Shown: in pieces, positions 1-25,011 of the stretch
Layout of the letters: the number at the start of each line of letters is the position of its first letter
Numbering within the stretch: the stretch's first letter is position 1
Source of the DNA: Minisyncoccota bacterium
GTDB taxonomy: Bacteria > Patescibacteriota > Minisyncoccia > Phycocordibacterales > VMEP01
Length of the DNA stretch: 64,000 bases
NCBI GenBank assembly: GCA_041661305.1
Contig: JBAZUR010000001.1
Coordinates: forward strand, 387,684-451,683
Direction: 5' to 3'
Notes under the pieces: generated by a model
Told to the model about the DNA's origin: nothing
The model's database searches: none
The model's input: the letters and a program-made list of their open reading frames with translations, nothing else
Program-made: the position numbers and the translations under genes

Positions 1-3000
1 TCCAACTTTTCCGTTTGATGTAACGACAAGCGCGTTTGAACCCACATTTAAGAGTGAGGAGAAAAGATTTGTTGATGATGCTGTTGTCGAAAAAAGATTT
101 GTTGTTGTTGCCGATGTCCCTGTTGCATTATTGAAAGTGAAATCCTGAAGTGTTGATGATCCCGTAACCCAAAGATTAGATAATGATGTAAGCCCGCCCA
201 AGAAAGAAACTGTGCCTGTTGCTGTGAGATTGCCTCCGATGTATGCATCACCTGCTACAGAGAGTTTGGCGAATGGTGAGGTGGTGCCGATACCGACGTT
301 GCCACCATTCAAATACGAATCTCCTGTTGTTCTTAATTGTATTGTTCTGGTCCCCGCAGCATTATATGCATAGAGTTGCGCATCAACAGCACTTGTGAAT
401 AATTCTGTTACACCACCAGCTGGAGAAAAAGCTAAACCAGAAGCACTACCGCTACCTAACCTTGTTCCAATAGAAAACCTATTAACACCTGATGTAAGAG
501 GGTCACCAATTACTAAACTTGGCGAGCTTAAAACAGGATTAGTAATATCAAGTCTTCCAAAAGGACTCGTTGTTCCAATTCCAACATTACCTGTTGAGCT
601 TTGTACTACAAATTGAGAACCACCAATTGTAAGTCCACCATTGAATGTTGAGGTACTTGTGTTTGTAACAGCGAGATTTGTAAGTGTTGTTGTGCCAAAC
701 GAAGCGGTACCTGTCGCGGTGATATTTGTCGCAGTAATATTTTGTGCAAAAAGATTTGTTGTCGTTGCATTTGTTGTCGTGCTATTTATCGCCGTGTACT
801 CAGTGATGGAAGCAAACGAGGAAGAAAGATTATCTATAACTCCTGATGTTGCGTGGAAAAGTGTGGTGAATAAATTGGTGGATGTTGCATTCGTCGTCGT
901 GCTGTTGAGGATAGAAAGATTTGAAATTGTAGAAGTTGAAGCGTTTGAGATAACTCCCCCAAAAAGATTTGTTAGACCTGATATATATGTATCACCTATA
1001 ACTTCAAGTTTTGCTGAAGTAGTAGTAGACACCGCGCCAATCAAAACTTGGTTGGTTGTTGTTGAAAGTCTTGTTCCAGAACCATTGAAATATGACCAAT
1101 CAATACTTCCAAGACCAGTACCCACAGCAACACCACCAAAGTACAAAACTCCAGCATTGTTGTAGAGACGATTATCAAAAACAGTCATTGGTGCGCCATT
1201 TTCTGAAAGATAGATAGGCCCTTCCACTGAAAAGACGTCTGTTGGGGAGCTTGTACCAATGCCGACATTACCATTTGAGCTAACAACCAAAGAATTGTTA
1301 CCGACATTCAAGAGTGAGGCGAAAAGATTTGTTGATGAAGCGGTAGCTGCGAAGAAGTTCGTTGTTGTTGCAGATGTCCCAGTTGCGTTGTTAAAAGTAA
1401 AATCCTGAAGTGTTGATGAACCTGTGACTAATAGATTTGTTGCCGATGTTGTCGCAAATGAAGACGAACCTGTGACAACTAAACTTGTTGCCGATGTTGT
1501 TGCGAACGAAGCAGTGCCAGTCGCAGTGATATTACCTGCGGTAATATTTTGTGCGAAAAGATTTGTTGATGTTGCGTTTGTTGTCGTGCCATTTACTGCC
1601 GTGTAATCAGTGAACGCAGCGACCGAAGAAGAAAATGTATCAATGACTCCTGTTGCAGCGTGAAGGATGGAGGCAAAGAAGTTCGTCGTTGTTGCAGATG
1701 TGCCTGTTGCGTTTGCAAATGTCACATCCTGAAATGATGAAAGGTTGGTAACGGTGAGGCTTGCGATAGTTGTTGTTGCAAGATTTGAAATTCCAGTAGC
1801 AGTCAAACTCTGTGTATTAAAACTATTTGCTGAAAGTGCCACGAATGAACCAGTGCCATTTACTGTAAGAGTCTCGAAAGTTCCAGTTGTTCCAGAGAAA
1901 GTTGAATTGGTTATGATTGCATTGTTGATTCGGACATTCGACAAATTGTCGATTCTTTGTGTAAGAGCAATGGCGGAGAAATTGTTGTTGTAATTTGTGG
2001 TGGCATTTGAAGACACTCGGTAGATCTCGCTCTTTAGTAGGTTGGCTAGTTCAGTGAGCCTCTTGTCCAAAGCTTCTTCTGTTGTTCCAAGGGTGATGTT
2101 GGTTGTTTGTGAGCCAGACGCCGATACTAATATTCCAGAAGAACTAATCTTCTTTATAACAGTGTCCGTGATTATGGCGGTGAGATCATCTGAAGATAAA
2201 CCGTTCAAATACTGCACACTCAAATTTGCCACTGTTGTAGAAGAAGTAACAACAAGTGGAGGAATACCTTGCTTTGCAAATGATTTTAATTGACCTTCAG
2301 TTTCAATAGAACCGAGAATCGAAATCTCACCATTATCATTAAGTAGAAGCAACTCGTTCGCATGTGTCCCCGGACGAAAACCGAGAACTGTTTGCGAATC
2401 TTTCATCCAATCTTTTACCGCATGCAAAGAAGTATCGAACATTCCAAAAACAACAGGGATAGGCAAGATGATAAATAGAACGAGCGCCGTTAGTGTGAGT
2501 GCTCCGAATTTTATTTTCGAAGCAGCTGTCATTGGTCGAGAAACAACAGATATTGGAGAAACTATCGAACCTTCAAGTTGTGAACTGATTTCTCTTTTAA
2601 CTGCAGCTGAAATATCAAATGGTTTTGGAGCTTCAGCAACTTTCTCTTTTATTTCCGGAACGATTGTAACCTTTGGTGCGAGTGGTGGAATTAGTGGTGC
2701 GCTTTTTTCAGTTGATTTTATTTTTTTATTATTCTCTTCAGCTATTTTCTCTTCTTGAGTTTTTTCAATTTTTGAATTTAGTGTACTAAGAGATTCTCCA
2801 ATCTTTTTAAACTCATTCATAAAGAAAGATTTCTCTTCTCCTCTCTCTACTATATGAACATTTTTTTCAGTCGATGTTTCTGGTTTTACAACTGATGCAA
2901 AATTAGGATGTGGAAATTCTGCAAAACTTGGACGCACCTTTTCCTTTACGAAAACTTCCTCTGCAAAAACAGGGCTTGAGATTTTTGGCGTAGCAACCGA

Positions 3001-13237: not shown

Positions 13238-15589
13238 TTATGGGTTTCTCCCGGCTTCTATTTCCTGAATGTAATAATCCCCTTGTGCCTTAAATCCAGG
13301 ATTTATTTCTATAATCCTTTTTATTAACTCAACAGACCTCGCCCTGTCTCCAATCTGAAGATATGTTGCCGCAAGAGTTAAAAGTGTTTGAGGGTCATTT
13401 GGGTTATTTTTTAATTGAGTTTCCAAAACAGAACGTAGTTTTTGATAATTACCAGTTGAGGCATATGCGCTAATAAGTCTGGTATCCATGGCTGTGTATT
13501 CCCCCAAAAGGGCTTCTGCCTCATTTGCTTTACCTCCATAAATTAAAGATGCGGCATAAATAACTCGAGCGTCATCGTATGTTGGATCTCCTTCGTAAGC
13601 TTGTTTTAAGACGTCAATCGCCTTACCAAATTCCTTCATGTTTATATAAGTAGTACCAAGCTCAAATAATACTTGTTGCTTCTTTGGAGAAATAGTACGT
13701 GCTTTTTCAAGATAAGTAACAGCTTCTCCAAACTGAGAGTAGTTATTCATCAATCCTCCCAAAAATAATGGGTAGCGCACATCAAGCGGACTATCTTCAG
13801 ACTGTTTAATCATTTCGTTGCGAGCCAAATTAACAAACTTCTGCTTTGCTTCAATAGGGACATTCGCTTGATTTAGTCTAAGTGAGATTTGTATCAACTG
13901 TTCGCGCGCTTCCCCACTTCCAAAGGTATTGTAGGCAAAAGTTTTTTCGAAATACTCGAAATTTTTATTCAACCCACCATCCGTTTCTCCGTGTGGTGAT
14001 ATCGCCTGAATCAATGCTTTTGAAGCAAAAATTGGTTTTACGTTCACAAAATACATAACCAAAACAAATCCGATTAATACGACTGGAACAAAAACAGAAT
14101 TAAGGGAACCTTCTTCCTTTTTTGCTTCAATATTTGTCATTCCTTCCTTGAGTGCCATAACGCTAATGAACCCTAATGTTGAGAAAAACAATATATAACT
14201 CACAAGGTTATCGAAAACAAAAAGATTGTGGAAAAAATACGCCCCGAAAAGACCAGTCAAAATACTCTTCTCAGCAACCGTAAAGGTAGATGTAAATTTC
14301 CACAAAGAATAAAGTGCTACTGCAAACATTGAAAGGTACGAAAGAAGACCAAGAAAACCAGCAGCTATTAACCAATCAAAGAAAACATTATGAGAACGGT
14401 CAAACCACGGTTCCTGACTCCACATTTTTGGGTTGTAATGTTTTGCAAAAACAACAATAAAGTTATCTTGCCCCCAACCCAAAAGCGGATTCTCTTTAAC
14501 CCCCTGCCAACTCATATTCCAAATCATAAAACGTGATTTGGTTGTTTGCTCGTCAAAAGAGATTGTAGAAAATCTACTTAAAACTGGGCTGGTGCTGATT
14601 ATTGGATTATTTTTAAACGCAATAAAAAGCCCGACAAACAAAACAACGGCAGTCAGTGTTCCAATTGCTATGTTTTTAACAAAACGATTTTCTCGATTAA
14701 ACCAAGCAATTAAAACTGAAGACAAAGAAACGCCGGCAATAAGACCCAAAATCGCTCCACGAGTAGCGGTATAATAAAGTGCAATCAAAGCCAAAGCGGT
14801 GATAGCACCATAAAGAACACGGCGAATAGTAATATTTTCCCTCTTCGTAAAATAAAAATATGCGAGCACTGGTAATCCAACTAAAGAGATTCCAAAAAAT
14901 ATCTTTCCGTAAAAACCAAGAGCCAGTGTGCTACTTACCACTCGAGTCAAACCAAAAATTGAGAGCAAAACAAAACCAACAAACGCTGAGTAGTAAATAT
15001 CTATCGAACCCTTACATTTATTTCTGACAAACCAAAAGGCCAACAGGAAAATATTAATCAAAAGAAAAACCGCAAAGTAGGTTGCGTTACCTAAGGTTGC
15101 ATCAGCACGGGTGCTCCCCTGGTTTATTGTTAACTCTCCGTGAACCTGCATAAAAGAATACATCGTCAGAAAAAAATTCACTCCAAACAAAACGTGAAAA
15201 AATTTCTCCCACAATCTTTCTGTCGCCATAACCGTCGTCACAACAAAAAAATACGCTGCGATATGTAGCAGAGAAACAAGACCTTCCATTCGTTCATAGT
15301 TTGACCAAAAACTACGGTATGTGTTTACTCCAAAAATATCAGCGAGAGCGACAATGCCGACAAATATTGCGACGGCTATGGCAATCCAATTTTTCTTCGG
15401 ACGATACGATGCGTCATAATAAACAAGAAGCAACCAAGCAGCAAATATAATTTCAACAATAATGCGGAAAGTAAAATTTTTCCCAGTAATAAATGGAAAA
15501 AACATTGAGCTTGAGATTATAAGCGGAATAAAAGGAACGAGAAAAATACCGCTGATAATAAAGTTTCTTAAAAAATTTTGAGGTACCAT
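13238..15589 (-). CDS. Wzy_C (O-antigen ligase / PglL-like) polytopic membrane protein fused to C-terminal TPR repeats
   Basis: About 12 TM helices. The Wzy_C signatures YYTATRGAILGL (T/SRGA) and DRSHNVFFDWLIAAGFLGL (HN..l...G..G) are present. The last 230 aa or so are TPR-like (AYASTGNYQKLRSVLETQLKNNP...). Confidence 0.75.
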   Translation of the reverse strand: MVPQNFLRNFIISGIFLVPFIPLIISSSMFFPFITGKNFTFRIIVEIIFAAWLLLVYYDASYRPKKNWIAIAVAIFVGIVALADIFGVNTYRSFWSNYERMEGLVSLLHIAAYFFVVTTVMATERLWEKFFHVLFGVNFFLTMYSFMQVHGELTINQGSTRADATLGNATYFAVFLLINIFLLAFWFVRNKCKGSIDIYYSAFVGFVLLSIFGLTRVVSSTLALGFYGKIFFGISLVGLPVLAYFYFTKRENITIRRVLYGAITALALIALYYTATRGAILGLIAGVSLSSVLIAWFNRENRFVKNIAIGTLTAVVLFVGLFIAFKNNPIISTSPVLSRFSTISFDEQTTKSRFMIWNMSWQGVKENPLLGWGQDNFIVVFAKHYNPKMWSQEPWFDRSHNVFFDWLIAAGFLGLLSYLSMFAVALYSLWKFTSTFTVAEKSILTGLFGAYFFHNLFVFDNLVSYILFFSTLGFISVMALKEGMTNIEAKKEEGSLNSVFVPVVLIGFVLVMYFVNVKPIFASKALIQAISPHGETDGGLNKNFEYFEKTFAYNTFGSGEAREQLIQISLRLNQANVPIEAKQKFVNLARNEMIKQSEDSPLDVRYPLFLGGLMNNYSQFGEAVTYLEKARTISPKKQQVLFELGTTYINMKEFGKAIDVLKQAYEGDPTYDDARVIYAASLIYGGKANEAEALLGEYTAMDTRLISAYASTGNYQKLRSVLETQLKNNPNDPQTLLTLAATYLQIGDRARSVELIKRIIEINPGFKAQGDYYIQEIEAGRNP

Positions 15590-15617
15590 GAATTGTTTTT
15601 AATTGTTAATTTAACAA

Positions 15618-15646
15618 CCAAAATCAAGGGGTCCCCTTGATTTTGG
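15618..15646 (-). terminator. Perfect 13-bp stem hairpin (ccaaaatcaaggg/cccttgattttgg) 77 nt downstream of the 1121-aa gene; terminator-like
   Basis: Read directly. The flanking T-tract on the minus strand is modest (ttgtt). Confidence 0.5.
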
Positions 15647-15722
15647 TGACGCACATTTATCGTAAGATTTTACCACAGCTTCGAACTTTACACACAAGGA
15701 GCGCAAAACCATCCCCCAAGAA

Positions 15723-18700
15723 CTAAAACTCAAAGAAATTAACCCTACAATCCGCTCTACATGTAGATGGATTCTCACCCTTGGAAGCCTGGCATCTATC
15801 GTCGCCACACGATGTACCCAATTGACGACAGACACCATCTGAATCGCACACTGTACCCACAGAGCTACACGAAGCGCTTGCGCCACTATACTCACCAGCG
15901 CAAGTCCATGTCCAAGATAACGCTGGGTCACTTTCTGGTAAGATATTAATATCTTCAGGTAAAACAACTGGTCCTGGTAATCCTACTGTGTTACAAAGAC
16001 CAGAAGTTGGTTTCTTTTGAGTTGGAGCACCATTAGCCGAACCACAGACTCCTGGTATTGGGTCTGGTGTAGTAACAACCAGTTGACGACCCTGACAAAA
16101 AGATGGCCATGTACTGGACCACGCCCCAGAATCATCTTGGGCCCTGAAAAAAATCCAATATGTTCCGGGAACAAACGAACGAGCAAAGCTTGTTAGGGAG
16201 CTAATGAGCGTGCCTGAGGTGCAGTTACCGAGTCTCCATTCATAAGCTACTATAGAGCCGTCAATGTCGGCATCTGTTGCTGCCCCAGAAAATTGCTGTG
16301 ACTGAGAACTGTTTATTGTAATGTTCGTAGCGGGACTAATCATTGTTGCTGTTGGTGTTTTGTTTTTATACGCACGACATGTCGGATTTGCTCCATTTAT
16401 TCCACGACAATCCCACTGATAGCGATCAGTAAAATTCCAAACAAAACCAGGAGTACCAGTATTACAAAGACCAGATGTTGGAGCGGTTGTTAATCTTGTA
16501 GTCCCATCAGCTGGACCACATGAACCATTAACTATGGTGGTCACGATACTTACAGTCTTAAAGACGTTTGCAGACTGATTATTATTAGAATCTTGTGTTC
16601 TTACATAAAAAACTTTAGTTCCAGTTGTATTCCATGTACGACTAATTGTCTGCGGGGTTCCAGATGGAACATATCCGATAGCAGGAGCCCATTCATCAAT
16701 TACCGTGTCGAAGTTCCAATCAAATCCATACCTAACATTATCACCATCAATATCTGTTGCAGTAGCTGTAAAACTAACAGGGGTATTCACAAGACTAGGG
16801 TCCTGATAAACAAGAGTTGGTGTGCTTGGCAAATTGCTTGGAGGAGCAGCGGTAAACGAGTAAGAGAGACTCATAGCTGGAACGCTATAACTAAGACCGC
16901 CCGAACGACCATACTGCCCTGTCTGTCTACCATCATAACTAATAAATTGCCCTGCCCTAAGAGAACCGTTCGTAGCCGGATATGCAATATTCATGCTTAT
17001 TGATTGCCCAGAAGAAGCTGTAACTATGCAATCAGAATAAAAAGGGCTGTAACTCACAACAGTGGCACACCACATGGGATCACCAGGATACTGCGAGCAG
17101 AAAAAACTATTATATGGACCACTTGTTCTCACCCCACCCAAAGTAGCTCCACAACTAAGACCACTTCCAGAAACAGAAAACGATGGTGGTATGGTGGCCA
17201 TATCTCCTTGGTAAATGATGTAATACCAACCACCAGAAACATAATTAATGTTAGTGCACTCGTTATATGTTGTACAAGATTTAGCAGAAGTATCCCACCG
17301 TCCATAAGGAGAGTCATATTCACCGCCCGTACCAACCCAAGAGCTAGCGCCACTACTTGGGTTCCAGGTTACACGAACAGTAGCACCGGTTGGAATTGAA
17401 GAACCATCGAGCACCTCTGACCCAAAAAGAGTTACTGTGGCGTTGTATAAAACTGTCGCTGTTATTCCCGCGACCCCATAACCAGTCGGATTGGCAGACC
17501 CTTCGCTAAAACCGAGTATTGGTAACCCAAATGACGTCCCAACACTCTTCGCCTCTACTGTTGTAGGAGCTATGAAAGAAGAGCCGAGAAAAATTAGAAT
17601 TAGTGTGAGAGAAATCGGTAATTTTTTTCTACCTTTTAAAACTGCCCACAAAACATAAATAATGGATAAAATAATTAAACCACCTAAAATAATAGCGCCT
17701 GTATTTGTTTTTTTAGGACAGATGTCAGGATTGATATCGCGACAATCATAGACCTCTTTCACCTCCTCGACTACCTCTCCTTTGTGTTTAAGCGTGGCAG
17801 TCAGAGAAAACGTTGTGTAATTTTTCTTCGGCGTAAACAAATCTTTTACACCCATCATTGCGCTCGTGATATTACCTGCATACTCATAGGAGTGAATCAA
17901 TCTACCTTTTTCATCATTTAGCGTTAAGGTAAGAGTATTATCTTTGACCACACCGTCGCTAACTGCGTGAACACAAGAGAAAAGCGTATTTTCTTTATTC
18001 TTTTCGAGTGGATAGCTCATGATGCTTGGAAAATTTATTCTTGTTTCCTCAATGCCATCACGAACAAAACGAATATTAAGAATTGATTTACTTGGACCAT
18101 CGTTTGTTTCTACTACAAGATAAGAAACAATCGCCCCTGTTGGTAATGCGGAATATGAAATTTCTTTAACTTCTTCGGGTTTAAGTTTAATAGACTCTGT
18201 TTTTGTGTCCTTAAGATTTTCTTCACGAAGACCATCCCAATTATAAAGTTTCCAAACGACAGGTACTGTCACTGATTCGTTCTTAGGATTTACAAGCTTA
18301 ACAACAACGCTCACTGGCTCATCTTTTGAAAAATGAAGTGGAAAAGCAGCAAAACGGTGTGGTTGTTTGTTTAGGGTAACAGTACTCTTGTCGAAAGTGA
18401 CAACGCTAATCTTTCGGTCGCTAACAACAGAAAAATAAACCTGATTCCCGACTACGTCGTCAGTAAAAGAAAGTCCTAAAAGATTGTAGCGCTTAGCAGT
18501 TTGAAAAAAGAAAGATGCAATATAATCTCCAGCTGGGGTGTTGTCTGGAACTTTCCATAAAAATGACGTCTTCTTGCTTCCGTTTGCTGGAATATTGAAA
18601 GTTTCATCAAGTGAAAACTGGTCAACCAAATCAAAACCATTCTCTTGGTCAAAATTTTCTCCCGCTTGCTGTCTAAATATTTTTACATAAACCTGGCCAT

Positions 18701-19088
18701 TAACTATCGGGTATGGATTGGCGTTTTTTATTTCACCAGGAAACCCGATTGTCGCGCCGGGAACAGTCTGGGTAAGTGTAGTCGGAAGATCAACCTGAAC
18801 AGACCCAAAATGGTAATAATCAAAACAATCAACTGCCCCCTCGGGGGAAGTCCCAGAGGTATCAATACCAGAAGGATTACTCAAAAGAATAAAAGAGGTC
18901 ATCTTTTCTTTTTCTTCATTTGTCCAAGTCTTTTGGTCTTTCTTTAAAATAGCCTGTATCTCAGCTGGAGCGTCCTCTATATTAACTGTCGGTGTGCTAG
19001 GTGACGAAGGAGTTGTCACTTGAGCTTGCGACAATAGTGCTGATGTAAAAAGTAACAAAAATAAAACAAAACCGAAAAGTTTTTTCAT
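15723..19088 (-). CDS. Large secreted/surface protein (1121 aa): signal peptide, approximately 450-aa beta-rich domain, hydrophobic hairpin (two adjacent TM segments), then a Cys/Gly/Ser/Trp-rich region with PKD/Ig-like repeats
   Basis: N-terminal MKKLFGFVLFLLLFTSALLSQAQ. The hydrophobic hairpin is TGAIILGGLIILSIIYVLWAVLKGRKKLPISLTLILIFLGSSFIAPTTVEA. Repeated DIDGDNVRYGFDWNFD and DADIDGSIVAYEWRLGNC are PKD-like, and there are more than 40 Cys in the C-terminal half. Confidence 0.7.
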   Translation of the reverse strand: MKKLFGFVLFLLLFTSALLSQAQVTTPSSPSTPTVNIEDAPAEIQAILKKDQKTWTNEEKEKMTSFILLSNPSGIDTSGTSPEGAVDCFDYYHFGSVQVDLPTTLTQTVPGATIGFPGEIKNANPYPIVNGQVYVKIFRQQAGENFDQENGFDLVDQFSLDETFNIPANGSKKTSFLWKVPDNTPAGDYIASFFFQTAKRYNLLGLSFTDDVVGNQVYFSVVSDRKISVVTFDKSTVTLNKQPHRFAAFPLHFSKDEPVSVVVKLVNPKNESVTVPVVWKLYNWDGLREENLKDTKTESIKLKPEEVKEISYSALPTGAIVSYLVVETNDGPSKSILNIRFVRDGIEETRINFPSIMSYPLEKNKENTLFSCVHAVSDGVVKDNTLTLTLNDEKGRLIHSYEYAGNITSAMMGVKDLFTPKKNYTTFSLTATLKHKGEVVEEVKEVYDCRDINPDICPKKTNTGAIILGGLIILSIIYVLWAVLKGRKKLPISLTLILIFLGSSFIAPTTVEAKSVGTSFGLPILGFSEGSANPTGYGVAGITATVLYNATVTLFGSEVLDGSSIPTGATVRVTWNPSSGASSWVGTGGEYDSPYGRWDTSAKSCTTYNECTNINYVSGGWYYIIYQGDMATIPPSFSVSGSGLSCGATLGGVRTSGPYNSFFCSQYPGDPMWCATVVSYSPFYSDCIVTASSGQSISMNIAYPATNGSLRAGQFISYDGRQTGQYGRSGGLSYSVPAMSLSYSFTAAPPSNLPSTPTLVYQDPSLVNTPVSFTATATDIDGDNVRYGFDWNFDTVIDEWAPAIGYVPSGTPQTISRTWNTTGTKVFYVRTQDSNNNQSANVFKTVSIVTTIVNGSCGPADGTTRLTTAPTSGLCNTGTPGFVWNFTDRYQWDCRGINGANPTCRAYKNKTPTATMISPATNITINSSQSQQFSGAATDADIDGSIVAYEWRLGNCTSGTLISSLTSFARSFVPGTYWIFFRAQDDSGAWSSTWPSFCQGRQLVVTTPDPIPGVCGSANGAPTQKKPTSGLCNTVGLPGPVVLPEDINILPESDPALSWTWTCAGEYSGASASCSSVGTVCDSDGVCRQLGTSCGDDRCQASKGENPSTCRADCRVNFFEF

Positions 19089-19160
19089 GTTAACTAAAGT
19101 ATAACATCCGTTTTCATTTTTAAAGACGAATTATACACAGGTTCAACTTTCCTTCAGGCG

Positions 19161-22100
19161 CTATGGTTCAACACCATATACCCAATTGAGAACGCCGTAT
19201 CTTTGATGTGGTGGGGTTGTTGTGACTGTTCCAGTAAAAAAGTTATTAAAAGATATTCTCTCTGCGCTGTTAACCAACCCTCCAGATCTAAGCGGACTTT
19301 CGTAAATAACAGCAAAATAATTTGCGCCCGAAACAAAATTACTTGGATTTATATTAAACAACTGTCCATATTCCGCACTCGTCCCCATATCTAATCCGTA
19401 GATACTAGTTGAACTACCGACTACCCCCTTATACAAACCAGCTACTTTCTGTCCAGTCAAAGAATCCGTCAAAAAACGACAATTATAATAAGACGAGCCC
19501 GAACGGGTCGGAACGTAATACCCTCCCTCCATAAAACTTGCTGTTTGTGGATCACAATAGAAACCAACTTTCCCCATACTGATACTGTTTCGTGTCTTTG
19601 GGGTTCCATTAATAATATTTCCGTCTTTGTCATGTCCCGCCAAATAAGAACCGTCGTTGGTCCCCCAATTATTTTTATCACTTCCAATCGTATCGACATG
19701 TTTTCTTTCCATTGTTTTGTAGTCCGGAGAACCACTACCACCGCACCAACCACTACAATCCGCCAAAACCGGAGTCTGGTCGATAGTTGTAGTTGAAGCA
19801 CCTCCGCCAAAATTTAAACTCAAAACTTCCCCGTCATTTGCAAGTCCAGACCCTCCACCAGTTCCACTGAATGGAACAGGCAAATCAATCGAAACGTCAG
19901 AAAAAATATCCCCTGCTTCACCGCGCCCTATCAAAAAATATCCGTACGCTGGTATGGTTCCTGAAAGCGAGATGTGTGGAGTGCCGTCTTCGGCGGATAT
20001 ACTAAAACCAGATAGGTTAAGTGGTAAATTGGTTCTATTTTTTAACTCAATCCATTCGTCGTATGACGACGCATCAGTTCCCGCCCAAGCAACTTCATTA
20101 ATTACAATTGGCATATAGCTTGCGGTGAAATATGCAGTATTGCCAACAGTGGACAAATCGCGGTTTCCAAAAATACTCACCGCCACAACTTTTATATCGT
20201 ACGGCCCTGCTGTTGTGGGGATAACAACAGAAGTATCGCTTGTCGTGGTAATAGTTGAAAATCCAGTCAAACTTGTGCCTTTGATTATTTCAAAATAACT
20301 ATAGTTAGGCGTACTTGCCGACCAAGAAATAGTAGCTTGTCCTTCCGGAAGAAAGCACGACTGCGGTGGTGCCTGTAAAGAGTTGGCACATTCTAGAACG
20401 CTCACGTTTGTTGCTCTTGGTTGTATTGTGTAAACATTAAAAATAGCGTCTCGTGAAACAGAGGTGTTGCCATCTTGATCGACAGCAAAAAACTTTATCG
20501 TTGTTGTTCCCTCCGGCAAATCAGAAAATGAAAGCGACCATGTGCTAGTAGAAGAAGCGACTACTGTCGCGTTGTTAAAATCATTTCCTATTGTAAATCC
20601 AGGCGTTGAAGTTCCAGAAAAAGTAACGGAATTTGTGCGTAGTTGTAATGGAAAATTATGTGAGGTAATTGATGGCGGAGAGATATTTGGGACATCAACC
20701 GATAAGGTAATTTCTTGTTGAGCGATGTTTTCATTATCAGGAATTGTTGCAAGAAATCGTATTGTGCTTATGCCATTTGGAAAATCAGAAATGGTAATAG
20801 ACCAGTCCCCTGTTTCTAATGAAGTTGTGGTGGATTGCGAATATGAATTTGAAATTGTTGCACCAGGAGTGGATGTGCCTGAAAATATTATAGTTGTCTC
20901 AGTAAACGCGTTAGAAAAATCGCTTGGTGATATAACGGAAATAAAAACCGAACTAGCTTGCGAAACTTCTGTTATCGATGTTTCTTCCTCCGTCGCCTGT
21001 TCTGTAGCCGGCGTTGTAATTACTGGGGCTGACACTGGCGCTCCACCGCCAAAACCAGGAGAAAAACCACTTCCAAAATTTATTTTTGGCATAGGAATAT
21101 TATCTGTGACTGGTGTTGGGGGTGTTTCTGTTGAAGTTGTTTGTTTTTGCACTTGAGGTTCTGTCTCTGTCTCGCTTGGTTGAGCAATAATCTGCTCAGC
21201 ATCTTGAGTGACTGGTGTGTTATTTTCTGAAGCTAAAACCGAAGTGGTGTCTGATTTTTGTTCCTCCGTTGGTATTTGTTGAACTTGCGCATCATTTGCT
21301 GTGGCGAGAACAACGGCCGCACCAGAATTTGAATCGCCAAAGGCTAGGTCTGTGGCGGCGCGTATTCCAGAACCAATCGTTGACGCAATATTTTTAATAG
21401 CACCCACCGTAGCGACACCGGCAGAGTAAACACCTCCCGCCGTTTCAACTACAACAGTTTTTGTTGTGTCCGCGACAGGATCAATAACAGCCAGCACTGC
21501 TCCTTGTACCTTGTGTGTGGTTGTAAGTTTAGGAGAAGCAATGCATGGCAAATTCTCGTTTTGATTTTTATTTGTCTTTAAATTATCGAGTGAGGATTTA
21601 ATATCAGACACAATTTGGGCGCTACGATACTTCATATAAACATCTGAAAAACTATGTCCGAGCTTATCATCACCATCTTTCAAAATGATTTTGGTATTCG
21701 CCGACATAATTTTCTTAAGCGGAACACTTCCAACAAAATCAGAAATAACTTTATCTGTACTTGAAGTAAGCCATTTTCCACCACCGGCAACACGACTAGC
21801 TGGAGTGGCAACAGAATAAACAGCAATAGAGCCTGCGGAAGCATTCCCGGGTTGTCCAAAAACTTTGTCATGGAAACTGTTGGCATAAAAATTGCCCTGT
21901 GAATGGGCAACGAGAAGCACTTTTTTGGTTTTAACTTTTTCACTCGCAGACTTCAACATCTCAACAAGATCATAATCTTGCACTGTTTCATCTTCAAAAA
22001 TCTTTTGGTATGTGGCGACAAAGGCGTCACCTAAACCACCAACATGAGATGGGTTGAGAAGATATTCATACTTAATTTTTTGGTTATTCCAAACAAAACC

Positions 22101-22274
22101 AACTTTTTTCATGAGTGCCTCCATATTCGCCACGGCGCCACTTTCGTCAGTAAAAACACCGTTTATAGTAGCCACCGTATAACCATCTGGGGAACAGTTT
22201 TTTACGCTAGAAGTAGCGAAAGAGACTGGTGGAAAAAACAAGCCAATGATTAAAAAATTAAATAAAAATTTCAT
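19161..22274 (-). CDS. Large secreted protein (1037 aa): N-terminal alpha/beta-hydrolase (lipase/esterase-like, GxSxG = AHSQG), Ser/Thr-rich linker, Ig-like repeats, lamin-tail domain (LTD), C-terminal domain
   Basis: Signal peptide MKFLFNFLIIGLFFPPVSFA. Lipase elbow KKVLLVAHSQGNFYAN. LTD signature IVINEVAWAGT....DEWIELKN. Duplicated FSGTSTPG...TISN segments. Confidence 0.7.
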   Translation of the reverse strand: MKFLFNFLIIGLFFPPVSFATSSVKNCSPDGYTVATINGVFTDESGAVANMEALMKKVGFVWNNQKIKYEYLLNPSHVGGLGDAFVATYQKIFEDETVQDYDLVEMLKSASEKVKTKKVLLVAHSQGNFYANSFHDKVFGQPGNASAGSIAVYSVATPASRVAGGGKWLTSSTDKVISDFVGSVPLKKIMSANTKIILKDGDDKLGHSFSDVYMKYRSAQIVSDIKSSLDNLKTNKNQNENLPCIASPKLTTTHKVQGAVLAVIDPVADTTKTVVVETAGGVYSAGVATVGAIKNIASTIGSGIRAATDLAFGDSNSGAAVVLATANDAQVQQIPTEEQKSDTTSVLASENNTPVTQDAEQIIAQPSETETEPQVQKQTTSTETPPTPVTDNIPMPKINFGSGFSPGFGGGAPVSAPVITTPATEQATEEETSITEVSQASSVFISVISPSDFSNAFTETTIIFSGTSTPGATISNSYSQSTTTSLETGDWSITISDFPNGISTIRFLATIPDNENIAQQEITLSVDVPNISPPSITSHNFPLQLRTNSVTFSGTSTPGFTIGNDFNNATVVASSTSTWSLSFSDLPEGTTTIKFFAVDQDGNTSVSRDAIFNVYTIQPRATNVSVLECANSLQAPPQSCFLPEGQATISWSASTPNYSYFEIIKGTSLTGFSTITTTSDTSVVIPTTAGPYDIKVVAVSIFGNRDLSTVGNTAYFTASYMPIVINEVAWAGTDASSYDEWIELKNRTNLPLNLSGFSISAEDGTPHISLSGTIPAYGYFLIGRGEAGDIFSDVSIDLPVPFSGTGGGSGLANDGEVLSLNFGGGASTTTIDQTPVLADCSGWCGGSGSPDYKTMERKHVDTIGSDKNNWGTNDGSYLAGHDKDGNIINGTPKTRNSISMGKVGFYCDPQTASFMEGGYYVPTRSGSSYYNCRFLTDSLTGQKVAGLYKGVVGSSTSIYGLDMGTSAEYGQLFNINPSNFVSGANYFAVIYESPLRSGGLVNSAERISFNNFFTGTVTTTPPHQRYGVLNWVYGVEP

Positions 22275-22276
22275 GT

Positions 22277-22903
22277 TTAGCTAACCAACACAGAAACATC
22301 TAAATCACACTCATCTTCAGACACAGAGTAGCTCCCAACGTATTCGTAAAAATTTTTTATATATTTTTTTCTCTCTTCTGTATTTACCTGGCGTTGTTTA
22401 ACAAAATTCTCGTTTTTTTCAGTTTCTGCGGTAAATTTATCCATATCCTCACGTGAACTAATACTCCAAATACATTTAAGTGCCTTACTTTGATTATCCT
22501 CCACGACCGCTGTAGCGGTTTCTCTGTTTAAAACAGGTAAGGTCATCTCAAGTTGTAGTGCGAGTGCGTACTGAAGCAACACCGCTCTAGTTTTCGCCGA
22601 GTTTGGATATTCTTTAAAAATAGCTAGTTCAACGTCATCACGAATTCCGTTTTGGTTGGCGTCAATTCCTGCGACAGTCTTATCTGCCTCAGTCCCCGGG
22701 TCTGGTGGCAAGTTCTTGCCCATTACATCATCCAACGTGAGCTTCGTCGCATGGATTTTTTCAACCTGCACGTTAGTTTTATCTACAGTCCAAAAATAAT
22801 AAGCGCGAACAATTACCAGCGCGACATAAATAATAAAAATAACAACGAGAATTCGTACTAAAATTTTTCTCCACCCCAAATTTAAAATGGACATATTCCC
22901 CAA
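22277..22903 (-). CDS. N-terminally membrane-anchored hypothetical protein (208 aa); stop/start abuts the 1037-aa gene
   Basis: TM helix ILVRILVVIFIIYVALVIV followed by a soluble domain. There is a 2-nt gap to the downstream gene. Confidence 0.5.
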   Translation of the reverse strand: MGNMSILNLGWRKILVRILVVIFIIYVALVIVRAYYFWTVDKTNVQVEKIHATKLTLDDVMGKNLPPDPGTEADKTVAGIDANQNGIRDDVELAIFKEYPNSAKTRAVLLQYALALQLEMTLPVLNRETATAVVEDNQSKALKCIWSISSREDMDKFTAETEKNENFVKQRQVNTEERKKYIKNFYEYVGSYSVSEDECDLDVSVLVS

Positions 22904-22977
22904 ATCTTAACAAACAACGCACCTCATTTCCCTCGCCTTCAACCAAACATGTGGATAACTCAAAAACACATACCCCT

Positions 22978-23027
22978 ATATCCCACTACTATTATTCTGC
23001 TATAGCAGAATAATAGTAGTGGGATAT
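22978..23027. promoter_or_regulatory. Perfect 50-bp palindrome (23-bp arms around a TATA centre), copy 1; candidate operator/bidirectional terminator between the PaaX-like gene and the surface-protein operon
   Basis: Sequence atatcccactactattattctgc-tata-gcagaataatagtagtgggatat is read directly. It shares a 38-bp core with copy 2. Confidence 0.7.
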
Positions 23028-23063
23028 TTGAATAATCAAAAAAACACCCGTTAAGTCACGATA

Positions 23064-23636
23064 TTAATCGGAGATAATAAATTTTCTTTTAAGAGCTTGG
23101 TCGTTCTCTATTTTGTCGGCAATTATATAAAGAACGTCCTTCCCTATTTTAAAATCCGCTTTCATTAAAGTAATCAGGTCTTCGCAGTCATATGGATACA
23201 CCCAAACACTGTCCTGAAGTTTCAAAAAACCGAAACTTTCTAAGGTTCTCCTTAATTTTTCCCTAAGTAATTTTCTCTCTTCTTTAAGGTCGTAAATAAC
23301 AATTCTCCATTTTCCGTCCCATTTTTTTGGTTTAGGTAATTCACCTTCGTCGTACATATAATACAAATGTCTTTCTCCTTCAGGGGTAAGCCTGGCAAAA
23401 GTTCCATTTTGTGTTTTCTCAAATCTAACTAGACCTCTTTCAACAAGACGCGTAACTGAACGTTTCACCCAATAACCATCTTTCCTCAAAATACCCAGCT
23501 TACCAAAAGCTCCGATTACGCTCGGCGCTATCAATGCAACGCTCAATAATCCAGCACCCTTAACAACAGACAAAACGACTTTTTGCACATTTTCTTTTTG
23601 TGTCCGCTTTTTTGATTCTTTTTCGAGAGCTCCCAT
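23064..23636 (-). CDS. PaaX-family-like transcriptional regulator (N-terminal winged helix + C-terminal Cas2-fold PaaX_C-like domain)
   Basis: A wHTH-like segment VTRLVERGLVRFEKTQNGTFARLTPEGERHLYY. The C-terminal WRIVIYDLKEERKLLREKLRRTLESFGFLKLQDSVWVYP has a Cas2/PaaX_C-like beta-alpha-beta pattern. Confidence 0.55.
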   Translation of the reverse strand: MGALEKESKKRTQKENVQKVVLSVVKGAGLLSVALIAPSVIGAFGKLGILRKDGYWVKRSVTRLVERGLVRFEKTQNGTFARLTPEGERHLYYMYDEGELPKPKKWDGKWRIVIYDLKEERKLLREKLRRTLESFGFLKLQDSVWVYPYDCEDLITLMKADFKIGKDVLYIIADKIENDQALKRKFIISD

Positions 23637-23661
23637 TTTTTTCTTTTTCTTTCTTTTCCCT

Positions 23662-23719
23662 ATCTTACACTCACTACTATTATTCTGCTATAGCAGAATA
23701 ATAGTAGTGAGTGTAAGAT
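23662..23719. promoter_or_regulatory. Perfect 58-bp palindrome (27-bp arms around a TATA centre), copy 2; sits in the promoter region of the PaaX-like gene
   Basis: Sequence atcttacactcactactattattctgc-tata-gcagaataatagtagtgagtgtaagat is read directly. Confidence 0.7.
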
Positions 23720-23725
23720 GATCTT

Positions 23726-24604
23726 CTATACATTTTTCTGCCAAGAAAAATCTCCGCGTGCAGTTTTTTTGCCGTCTTTTTTTAAGTAGTCTTCCAAAAG
23801 CTCCGAACTTGAACGAACCTTTCCACTTTTACCAATATTGAAAACCATTTCCACTCCCAAATCTTTACAAATTTTCGCTTCTGGTATCGCATCTTCATCT
23901 TTCCTGTCGCCACCGTTAGCAAAAATTTGCGGTCGTATTTTTTCAATTGCCTCCCCCACGTCATCACGATCAGTTTCTAAGATAAAAACATCATCAACAT
24001 GCTTAATCCCTTTTATTAGGGCGGCGCGATCATTTTGGTTCATGAAATACTTTCCTTTTTTACGAATCAACCATGCATCACAATTAATAACAACTATAAG
24101 TTTGTCTCCTAAAGCCTTAGCTTCCTCAAACATCTCTAAGTGTCCTACGTGTATCGGATCAAAACCACCACTAACAACAACTATTTTTTCTTTTTTATCC
24201 ATCTGCAAAACATCTCCGCCCGTCCTGCCGTAATCATCTTCGTATCGAACGATGTCTCCTTCATCAGCAGAGCTACCGTGCACAAGCTCAAAATAAACAC
24301 CGCGAAGCAATCTGTGTTTCTCTTTAGGCTTCACTCTGTAAAAACCAACGTGCCATTCATGGTGTTTATCATCTTCTTCTGTTCCTTGAATCCCTTTACC
24401 GCGAACTATTCTAAAATATATCCCAGGAAGCACGTAGTGTTTGTTTTTAGGTGTAACTTTATACACCCCAAGTTGCCACTCAGTGCGATTATTATGACTC
24501 TGAAGACTTGTCTGCCCACCAACCACAATAAACTTAACCCAGAAATTTTTATGGTGAACAAGCTTCCACATTCTCCCCCATGGTCGTTTTGTATAAAAAG
24601 TCAT
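23726..24604 (-). CDS. Fusion protein: N-terminal tandem cupin modules (mannose-6-phosphate-isomerase type II-like 'RPWG' motif) + C-terminal HxGH nucleotidyltransferase (RfaE/HldE domain-II-like heptose-1-phosphate adenylyl/cytidylyltransferase)
   Basis: KRPWGRMWKL...VKFIVVGGQTSLQSHNNRTEW. There is an internal repeat GVYKVTPKNKHYVLPGIYFRIVRG / GFYRVKPKEKHRLLRGVYFELVHG. The motif VVVSGGFDPIHVGHLEMFEEAKALGDKLIVVIN is the nucleotidyltransferase signature. Confidence 0.55.
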   Translation of the reverse strand: MTFYTKRPWGRMWKLVHHKNFWVKFIVVGGQTSLQSHNNRTEWQLGVYKVTPKNKHYVLPGIYFRIVRGKGIQGTEEDDKHHEWHVGFYRVKPKEKHRLLRGVYFELVHGSSADEGDIVRYEDDYGRTGGDVLQMDKKEKIVVVSGGFDPIHVGHLEMFEEAKALGDKLIVVINCDAWLIRKKGKYFMNQNDRAALIKGIKHVDDVFILETDRDDVGEAIEKIRPQIFANGGDRKDEDAIPEAKICKDLGVEMVFNIGKSGKVRSSSELLEDYLKKDGKKTARGDFSWQKNV

Positions 24605-24705
24605 TTTATTTTTTTACAGTATAAACTAAATTATTATAAGGTCTAACCTTATAAAATATGTAACATTTTGGTTCTAAATATTGTTATATAGTAGAGTAAC
24701 AAAAA

Positions 24706-24731
24706 TGACACTTTTTGACACTTATTGACAC
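24706..24731 (+). promoter_or_regulatory. Three direct TGACAC(TT) boxes at exact 10-bp spacing (24706, 24716, 24726), 30 bp upstream of the HTH_17-gmd operon start; promoter -35 region / regulator binding array
   Basis: Sequence atgacactttttgacacttattgacacc followed by ...tttttactaatact... and ATG at 24763. Confidence 0.5.
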
Positions 24732-24762
24732 CTTCCCTATTTTTACTAATACTTAACAAATC

Positions 24763-25011
24763 ATGACAGAAGAGATACACCCAAATGCTGTTTATACAAC
24801 AGCAGAAACACAAACTATTCTTAAAATAAGTGATAGTACGGTAAAACGTATGCTAAAAAACGGTCTTATTCGTGCTAATAAAGTCGGCGGACAATACAGA
24901 ATTATGGGAAAAGAACTACTTCGTATCCTCTCCCCCGATCTAGAAAAAGAAACAACGCAATCTTATTTAAAAATAAAAAAGAAGGTAGTCGCCAAAATCA
25001 ACAGATGGTAA
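24763..25011 (+). CDS. Small HTH_17 (excisionase-family) DNA-binding protein, translationally coupled to gmd
   Basis: Motif [30 protein letters not shown] (HTH_17 pattern). The stop overlaps the gmd start. Confidence 0.65.

Follow-up and report, generated by a model that had tools for sequence, protein, structure and literature searches.

Lambda cI with OL/OR, GalR with OE/OI and LacI with O1/O2 are repressors whose paired cognate operators act together through DNA looping. Knowledge of gene regulation is almost non-existent for the Patescibacteria, or candidate phyla radiation (CPR), which have very few transcription factors. In E. coli, the reported PaaX site reads TGATTC-N27-GAATCA, with half-sites about 14–19 bp from the dyad, and PaaX reportedly acts as a repressor at its own promoter, where it impedes RNA polymerase (PMC9493321). 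Here we describe a 64,000-nucleotide stretch from a Minisyncoccota bacterium (assembly GCA_041661305.1, contig JBAZUR010000001.1, positions 387,684 to 451,683 of the forward strand; hereafter the window), in which the gene of a 190-aa PaaX-like protein lies between two long palindromes. Comparison with homologous loci suggests, with a probability that we put at roughly 0.68, that the palindromes are cognate operators of the protein encoded between them, one serving autorepression and the other being a second operator intrinsic to the module. In the literature on PaaX, Cas2 and Patescibacteria and on PaaX operators we found no description of such a site-gene-site module, and a family-wide module of this type with a private bipartite operator appears not to have been described before.

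The inverted-repeat search returned copy 1 as 22978-23002/23003-23027 (arms of 25 nt, 0 nt between them, 100% complementary, 50 bp) and copy 2 as 23662-23690/23691-23719 (arms of 29 nt, 0 nt between them, 100% complementary, 58 bp). The first-pass annotation of the stretch had reported two flawless palindromes with 23- and 27-nt arms around a TATA centre; these are the same objects, and its observation of a shared 38-bp core, CACTACTATTATTCTGCTATAGCAGAATAATAGTAGTG, was confirmed as well, since the core is the same letter for letter at 22984-23021 (copy 1) and 23672-23709 (copy 2). Outside this core the outer arms diverge (ATATCC in copy 1, ATCTTACACT in copy 2). With up to three mismatches allowed, the core has two matches in the 64 kb, which are the two copies, and 0 in 100 dinucleotide shuffles. 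At the same tolerance its inner 26-mer and its 16-nt half-site are absent elsewhere in the window, with zero matches in the shuffles, and a search of the window for further palindromes of the same class found none. The parts of the module are listed here in the order in which the gene is read; the outer-box coordinates were derived from the letters together with the family symmetry profile.

23662..23719, no strand: copy 2, zero-loop 58-bp palindrome with class-B geometry (see below), putative operator upstream of the PaaX-like gene, whose predicted promoter it overlaps
23672..23709, no strand: core of copy 2, 38 bp, matching 22984-23021
23701..23708, mirrored at 23673..23680: outer box of copy 2 (±11–18 from the centre), the lineage-private part of the site
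23687..23694, no strand: centre box GCTATAGC of copy 2, a motif conserved family-wide
23662..23667, minus strand: predicted -10 hexamer TAAGAT, read by eye, at +24..+29 from the centre of copy 2 and thus its outermost arm
23064..23636, minus strand: 190-aa protein with a winged helix-turn-helix (wHTH) and a PaaX_M/Cas2-like domain, without PaaX_C (NCBI MFA6077798.1, named 'Cas2')
22978..23027, no strand: copy 1, zero-loop 50-bp palindrome, putative downstream operator copy
22984..23021, no strand: core of copy 1, 38 bp, matching 23672-23709
22985..22992, mirrored at 23013..23020: outer box of copy 1 (±11–18)
22999..23006, no strand: centre box GCTATAGC of copy 1

The arrangement recurs throughout the protein family, which comprises 537 clusters (50% identity) at E≤1e-30 and 2,859 at E≤1e-10 and, as far as seen, is restricted to Patescibacteria/CPR. 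Our survey set consisted of 80 metagenome loci with homologues at 47–80% identity. Long zero-loop palindromes occurred there at 0.96 per kb within 150 nt of the gene ends vs 0.012 per kb in 426 kb of other flanks; 24 such palindromes were found, 21 centred on GCTATAGC and three on ACGATCGT. The exact 8-mer GCTATAGC matched 90 times in the 23.3 kb at gene ends vs nine times in 471.6 kb elsewhere, an enrichment of about 200-fold, and was present upstream in 42 of 76 loci, downstream in 46 of 77 and on both sides in 40 of 73. Five of the nine distant matches fall inside coding sequence, show no extended symmetry and can be attributed to chance; the other four (in L013, L062 and the near-identical L076 and L078) represent three distinct additional sites, no more than 3 kb away from the gene, which bear outer boxes specific to their locus. 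When the motif was disregarded and a best symmetric site scoring 14/22 or more was required, 62/76 upstream and 60/77 downstream flanks passed vs 12.6% of 691 control gene flanks. In all, about 80% of the 80 homologous loci have a matched symmetric site just upstream of the start and 10–100 nt past the stop. Loci that apparently lack a palindrome carry a short version (such as TACGCTATAGCGTA, TATGCTATAGCATA or TTAGCTATAGCTAA), mostly on both sides, and the members with palindromes are scattered across the whole family tree.

More distant or duplicated members show the same organisation. In a Parcubacteria metagenome-assembled genome (MAG; L006), a 31%-identical PaaX_M protein is encoded between two perfect palindromes centred on CTGCTATAGCAG. 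The paralogue P0005 (66% identity), located 18 genes off on the same contig and with no loci overlapping the window, has its own near-perfect upstream site of private sequence; downstream it has a perfect 52-bp palindrome (arms GTACACTATAATCTTGCTA and TAGCAAGATTATAGTGTAC), with a canonical GC-rich hairpin terminator just upstream of that palindrome. The 20-nt centre TATTCTGCTATAGCAGAATA, sought in a collection with a single genome for each species, occurs at nine loci, five of them in CPR genomes. These five are true relatives of the site, being perfect zero-loop palindromes with arms of 18–23 nt and differing outer arms; the four non-CPR matches, whose symmetric arms measure only 10–13 nt, were dismissed as chance. 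One MAG, JBDRST01, contains two perfect palindromes that are nearly identical and have the 20-nt centre of the window: L003 1482-1517 stands between mreB and gatC, L009 6054-6095 between tRNA-Pro and a HigA-like gene, and neither has a family member closer than 4 kb. These solo sites may be trans targets or relics.

Across the family sites, the mismatch rate between the arms is 0.03–0.23 at ±1–6 from the centre, rises to 0.37–0.56 at ±7–10, falls to 0.05–0.18 at ±11–18 and reaches about 0.5–0.6 beyond ±19, with very similar profiles for upstream and downstream sites. Because symmetry is confined to ±1–6 and ±11–18, the constrained site consists of a centre box and two outer boxes. The variants of the centre (CCGGTCGG, ACGATCGT, GCGATAGC, GCGGCCGC-like, GCACGTGC and CCTATAGG) largely track the clades of the protein, some of them occurring in more than one (CCGGTCGG in two), and the upstream and downstream sites of a locus have common, lineage-private outer boxes. 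This clade-tracking, together with the near-exclusive position at the gene's own flanks, is what chiefly argues for recognition of the sites by the encoded protein. Locus L013 has palindromes at both syntenic positions and a third one upstream of the cytidylyltransferase gene; the core of all three contains …TTACGCTATAGCGTAA…, unlike that of the window, so the sites of one locus evolve in concert. The third palindrome (L013 2065-2108) occupies the divergent spacer between the HTH_17 and cytidylyltransferase genes, and the equivalent spacer of the window, 24605-24762, is without one.

The upstream sites are positioned relative to the start codon in a quantised manner, with 17 nt between centre and ATG in 15 loci (class A) and 35–38 nt in another 15 (class B). 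Nearly all of the 17-nt loci have a TAnnnT hexamer (TATAAT, TATACT, TATGAT, TAGAAT and similar) at +6..+11, with the ATG 6 nt on, and the 35–38-nt loci have TATAAT at about +22..+30, 6–7 nt ahead of the ATG. Class-B relatives of the window show TATAAT or TAAAAT at +22..+30 (counted by eye at exactly +24..+29 in L027, L013 and L014), and L013 and L014, the closest ones, have TAAAAT where copy 2 of the window has TAAGAT. The comparative data strongly support the earlier placement of copy 2 in the regulator's promoter, since upstream sites of the family cover the -10/-35 region at fixed distances. A -35 element was also sought by eye in the family and no consistent one was found; TTGTCA is present in only about four class-A loci, where its distance from the -10 is unsuitable. 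Judged from sequence, a -10 placed 6–7 nt ahead of the ATG is a signature of leaderless mRNA that is general in these relatives, as 48 of 263 non-family genes have a strong -10 at exactly this distance, against a background of about three per position. In the genome of the window, 0 of 52 called genes carry a motif resembling the Shine-Dalgarno (SD) sequence (GGAG/GAGG/AGGA) at -18..-4, and the leaders are A-rich. The whole class-A promoter geometry, with an ATG at +18, is duplicated at the downstream site of L032, near position 3399 of L062 and at 640-677 of L033, and these sites could therefore drive short unannotated leaderless open reading frames (ORFs).

The 190-aa protein matches Pfam PF20803 (PaaX_M) over residues 104–178 (72.8 bits vs a cut-off of 24, E = 2.5e-20) and PF09827 (CRISPR_Cas2) exactly at threshold (23.8 vs 23.8 bits, 5e-5). 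It just passes TIGR01573 (cas2; 28.1 bits vs 24.5), and the equivalog score of TIGR02277 (PaaX; 46.5 bits vs 264.55) is not reached. Pfam gave no PaaX_C match, and the chain stops about 12 residues past PaaX_M. Residues 58–151 of the family profile align to residues 56–146 of E. coli PaaX (8a39), comprising the recognition helix, the wing and the start of the Cas2-like domain, and the profile also weakly matches Rv0674. The AlphaFold2 model (predicted local distance difference test score, pLDDT, 73.6) has a helix at 54–66, a β-hairpin wing at 70–83, a helix at 85–97 and then a βαββαβ domain; in Foldseek its best match is PaaX 8a39 (1.8e-5), the second is Rv0674 (3kfw, 5.8e-4), and many Cas2 structures follow. 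Strand β1 spans residues 110–115, and the Asp at its end, D116, is invariant in the 31-sequence family alignment and aligns with the YDV motif of the Cas2 protein 3exc (SSO8090); E. coli PaaX is without this Asp. A YPYDCED motif is conserved in the family as well. The similarity to PaaX and Cas2 is thus real by Pfam, family-profile alignment, NCBIfam and Foldseek. The wHTH and the Cas2-like, PaaX-related fold described in the first pass hold, except that the domain is PaaX_M, the central dimerisation domain, and that PaaX_C is absent.

Genomic context fits neither of the two names. The window contains no CRISPR-like repeat array, and no Cas1 was found among the neighbour clusters of the 80 homologues, the other ORFs of the window not all having been scanned for it. 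No paa genes lie near the module, whose neighbours are the cytidylyltransferase-like gene and the 208-, 1037- and 1121-aa genes, and the 80 homologues are likewise without them. Lacking PaaX_C and a paa context and scoring below the equivalog cut-off, the protein does not qualify as PaaX proper, and without a CRISPR or cas1 context it does not qualify as a functional Cas2 either. Most likely, from its sequence features, it is a minimal PaaX-like repressor made of a winged helix and a Cas2-like dimerisation domain, without the effector-binding C-terminal domain. Both MFA6077798.1 and its 66% paralogue MFA6077780.1, 18 genes apart, bear the NCBI name 'CRISPR-associated endonuclease Cas2'. This name results from the TIGR01573 score exceeding its cut-off and is probably a systematic over-annotation.

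From these comparisons we infer binding by this protein, repression and a role for copy 1. The protein would recognise a bipartite site in which the centre box (GCTATAGC, ±1–6) lies between the outer boxes at ±11–18. Copy 2 would span the predicted -35 position (at the palindrome centre) and the predicted -10 (TAAGAT, in the outermost arm) of the gene's own promoter, so that a bound dimer would block RNA polymerase and exert negative autoregulation. Copy 1 would most likely serve as an auxiliary operator that loops with copy 2 and/or as a roadblock of bound protein, shielding the module from transcription of its neighbours, and it could incidentally gate read-through into the 208-, 1037- and 1121-aa genes. 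Comparative data, namely the flanking sites, the clade-tracking and the PaaX-like geometry, thus back the suggestion of the first-pass annotation that the regulator encoded between the palindromes uses them as operators and regulates its own gene.

Several observations weigh against this model. A regulator with detectable targets almost only at the ends of its own gene is odd. The clade-tracking of the motifs could in part reflect shared ancestry and not recognition. The window's gene is not leaderless, its predicted -10 is without a good -35 (TAGCAG), and residues 8–57 of the structural model are of low confidence. The Cas2-like domain may do more than dimerise, because its β1 Asp is invariant here and absent in E. 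coli PaaX. Finally, mismatches compatible with G·U pairing show a modest excess on the sense strand (73:44, p=0.009; 62:40, p=0.04), which leaves room for some RNA-level role.

Control of the surface genes had been proposed for copy 1, and a specific operator or promoter of the 208-, 1037- and 1121-aa genes, their regulation being the main job of the protein, would be compatible with autoregulation; we consider it a serious candidate, if on balance an unlikely one. A sigma-70-like match (TTGATT-N18-TATTAT) has its -10 in copy 1 and faces the 208-aa gene, the arrangement is kept in the close relatives L013 and L014, and 27 of 46 downstream sites lie ahead of a co-directional gene. At these 46 loci, however, the site tracks the stop codon of the regulator (10–100 nt past it, median about 30) and not the next start, which may overlap the site or lie up to about 430 nt past its centre (9–428 nt), and 19 of the 46 next genes are convergent. 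The neighbours of the 80 homologues are diverse housekeeping genes (M16 peptidase, ThrRS, PheT, release factor, RmuC, NUDIX, HtpX), the next gene of the M16-peptidase group has its own -10/ATG 47–104 nt past the site centre, and a promoter scan of the region yielded five matches vs a shuffle mean of eight. In the class-B loci inspected, the operator (about ±20) alone is duplicated downstream, not the -10/ATG. Because its position tracks the stop codon and the neighbours are diverse, the downstream copy is best regarded as an intrinsic part of the module rather than a neighbour's promoter; kept whatever the next gene, it lends no support to a specific role in the surface operon. Incidental control of the downstream genes may nevertheless occur, given the weak sigma-70-like -10 in copy 1. 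Improbable, in our view, is an action of the palindromes as RNA hairpins, by termination, RNase III cutting or stabilisation of the 5′/3′ ends of the PaaX-like mRNA. Both copies fold very stably as single strands (-23.3 kcal/mol, z = -11.8 for copy 1; -27.8 kcal/mol, z = -13.1 for copy 2), copy 1 lies in a 3′ untranslated region position and copy 2 right behind the stop of the upstream gene, and the G·U excess points in the same direction. Yet a terminator scan of 22200-24900 is empty at both palindromes, there is no adjacent T-run, the stems are AT-rich with flanks of AGGGG... and AGGGAAAA..., and Rfam returned only sub-threshold miRNA-precursor/hairpin noise for 22500-24200. The genome's own terminators are GC-rich hairpins of a different type, as seen beside the paralogue's site, and the relatives have many ordinary ones; neither palindrome fits the canonical definition, contrary to the idea that they double as bidirectional terminators. 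Moreover, most family sites are bipartite with a 4-nt asymmetric gap, their mismatches are mostly of the transversion type (230 and 182), and in class A the -10 lies in the arm and the ATG in the outer arm, so that a transcript from the ATG would miss the left arm.

We give little credence to a cassette that is selfish or mobile, or to DNA processing by the module, with the wHTH guiding a Cas2-like nuclease to the palindromes for nicking, excision, recombination or palindrome-making. In its favour, the gene is bracketed by repeats that are at once direct and inverted, specificity is private to each paralogue, the D116 missing from E. coli PaaX is invariant and YPYDCED conserved, perfect palindromes are in surplus and solo sites exist in other CPR genomes. 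These features have to be set against synteny kept at 80% protein identity (window vs L013), stable linkage across lineages (such as ThrRS/NUDIX – gene – M16 peptidase) with vertical-looking inheritance, and a set of nearest annotated neighbours in which no transposase or integrase was seen. Viral contigs yielded no relatives of the protein, which disfavours a phage or mobile context, no evidence of a prophage context was found for the module, and a non-exhaustive search revealed no empty-site polymorphism. The asymmetric parts of paired sites are mostly direct (24 direct, 9 inverted, 18 ambiguous) and do not form consistent terminal inverted repeats; such repeats of a transposon or insertion sequence were rejected on grounds of this inconsistent orientation, the conserved synteny and the lack of viral-contig relatives. 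A self-contained module whose catalytic Cas2-like domain nicks or resolves extruded cruciforms at its two private palindromes would be a long shot too; such processing could drive gene conversion, the 'perfecting' of palindromes, excision or self/non-self marking. Scarcely credible are generic palindromes of the repetitive extragenic palindromic (REP) or bacterial interspersed mosaic element (BIME) kind, or sites of an unrelated global factor standing beside the gene by chance. Sites with the same centre do occur in CPR genomes without a family member within 4 kb (L001, L003, L007, L009), but the window holds two copies in 64 kb, the 472 kb of relatives' flanks are at background for GCTATAGC save for the three additional sites less than 3 kb away from the gene, and centre motif and outer boxes shift with the clade of the adjacent protein. 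Checked over both sets of sequence, the palindromes are not REP-like; the first-pass annotation had named such an element as an outcome that would count against operators.

The perfection of the window's palindromes calls for a separate explanation, because most family sites are symmetric at ±1–6 and ±11–18 only, so that binding does not require it. The number of matches within ±18 is bimodally distributed, with 18 perfect sites vs 0.9–2.2 expected from the per-position rates and a dip at 16/18 matches (5 observed vs 23 expected). In the perfect sites symmetry continues to 19–28 nt, past the constrained region, and the paired palindromes of one locus differ by changes that are mirrored in both arms (L034, L076, L084). 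Both window copies (25 and 29 nt) fall in this class, and the left outer arm of copy 2 mirrors the -10 hexamer. About 15% of the sites, both window copies included, seem to have become long perfect palindromes by conversion. Homogenisation and extension of imperfect inverted-repeat arms by template switching between them is documented (PMC8794818, PMC7202029, PMC13100816), and we infer from the sequence patterns that the flawless symmetry probably originated in this way, a one-step template switch having homogenised and extended the arms; this is the most parsimonious account. Quasi-palindrome template-switch mutagenesis has in common with our sites the homogenisation and extension of arms in one step, the apparent compensatory changes and the bimodal symmetry; it differs in being a mutational mechanism, silent on function.

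The local genes are all on the minus strand, in the order 292-aa gene, copy 2, 190-aa gene, copy 1, 208-aa, 1037-aa and 1121-aa genes. Copy 2 ends 25 nt before the ATG of the 190-aa gene, 36 nt separate the stop of this gene from copy 1, and another 75 nt lie between copy 1 and the 208-aa ORF. The following features surround or overlap the module.

23726..24604, minus strand: 292-aa cytidylyltransferase-like gene, its stop 6 nt ahead of copy 2 (context)
23637..23661, minus strand: purine-rich stretch (mostly A, some G, without an SD-like motif) between copy 2 and the ATG; predicted transcription start site near 23655
23010..23039, minus strand: candidate sigma-70-like promoter TTGATT-N18-TATTAT with its -10 in the upstream arm of copy 1, towards the 208-aa gene; a consensus match only
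22277..22903, minus strand: 208-aa gene, first of the downstream 208-, 1037- and 1121-aa genes, no Pfam match (context)

According to Pfam, the 1037-aa protein has an LTD domain and the 1121-aa protein a weak PKD match. Downstream of the module, the minus-strand region 13238-22274 encodes these two proteins and a 783-aa protein with Wzy_C (O-antigen ligase-like) and TPR, and upstream of it lie a GDP-mannose 4,6-dehydratase gene and other sugar-nucleotide genes; flanked by these, the module is situated within a cell-surface/glycan gene neighbourhood. The 208-aa protein and its L013 homologue (L013 4128-4751) have a conserved MGNMSILN start, read from TTG. In L014, a 364-aa gene with the MGNMSILN N terminus (992-2086) precedes the 206-aa homologue (2190-2810), which begins differently, and this arrangement suggests an insertion or rearrangement directly past the downstream palindrome. 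On the plus strand, two overlapping TTGACA -35-like boxes (ttgacacttattgacacc) with -10-like hexamers downstream are found at 24715-24753, before an 82-aa HTH_17 gene (24763-25011). Degenerate direct repeats of 30 nt and 48 nt (GAGAAAAGATTTGTTGATGATGCTGTTGTC and similar) at the left edge of the window (59-1503) are probably coding repeats of a large repetitive protein gene. The window contains no tRNAs; some sites elsewhere adjoin tRNAs (L009, L076), without a general link.

One odd pair of palindromes thus leads to a testable, family-level rule for two-domain PaaX-like proteins that are routinely mis-named "Cas2", and a probable systematic annotation error is flagged. The family offers pairs of cognate protein and site for studies of wHTH specificity and a handle on the promoter architecture of CPR bacteria, with leaderless genes in the relatives and SD-less, A-rich leaders in the genome of the window. 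It also provides a clean natural case of operator palindromes that were "perfected", apparently by template switching. If the Cas2-like domain were indeed catalytic on the sites, CPR bacteria would possess an enzyme of the Cas2 fold that acts on specific DNA sequences outside CRISPR, and interest would be considerably higher.

Among the described systems, the PaaX proteins of E. coli (8a39) and Pseudomonas share with the present family the order of an N-terminal wHTH and a Cas2-like dimerisation domain, as well as a long-span inverted-repeat operator whose half-site geometry is close to that of the outer boxes at ±11–18. PaaX has its operator at its own promoter, and the putative operators here overlap the predicted promoters of the regulator genes, with upstream sites centred 17 or 35–38 nt before the ATG. 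Our protein differs in its length (190 aa vs about 316 aa) and in having no PaaX_C effector domain, which binds phenylacetyl-CoA, no paa genes nearby and a TIGR02277 score of 46.5 vs 264.55. It also retains the Cas2-type Asp that is absent in E. coli PaaX, and its site has an additional, strongly conserved centre box and a second copy just past the stop codon. Rv0674 of M. tuberculosis (3kfw), an uncharacterised PaaX-like protein, ranks second among the structural matches and matches weakly in sequence, but is longer (234–247 aa) with additional C-terminal structure, and we know of no comparable operators flanking its gene. With Cas2 and VapD, the protein has in common a C-terminal half of the ferredoxin-like Cas2 fold with the aligned and conserved β1 Asp; unlike Cas2, it is fused to a wHTH, the window is free of CRISPR arrays, and no Cas1 was seen near the 80 homologues. 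The two spaced copies of its own operator resemble those of the looping repressors, whereas the spacing of about 600–740 bp across one small gene is different, and looping is a candidate role. Finally, as in lambdoid immunity regions, the specificities of operator and repressor are private to each lineage and appear to co-evolve.

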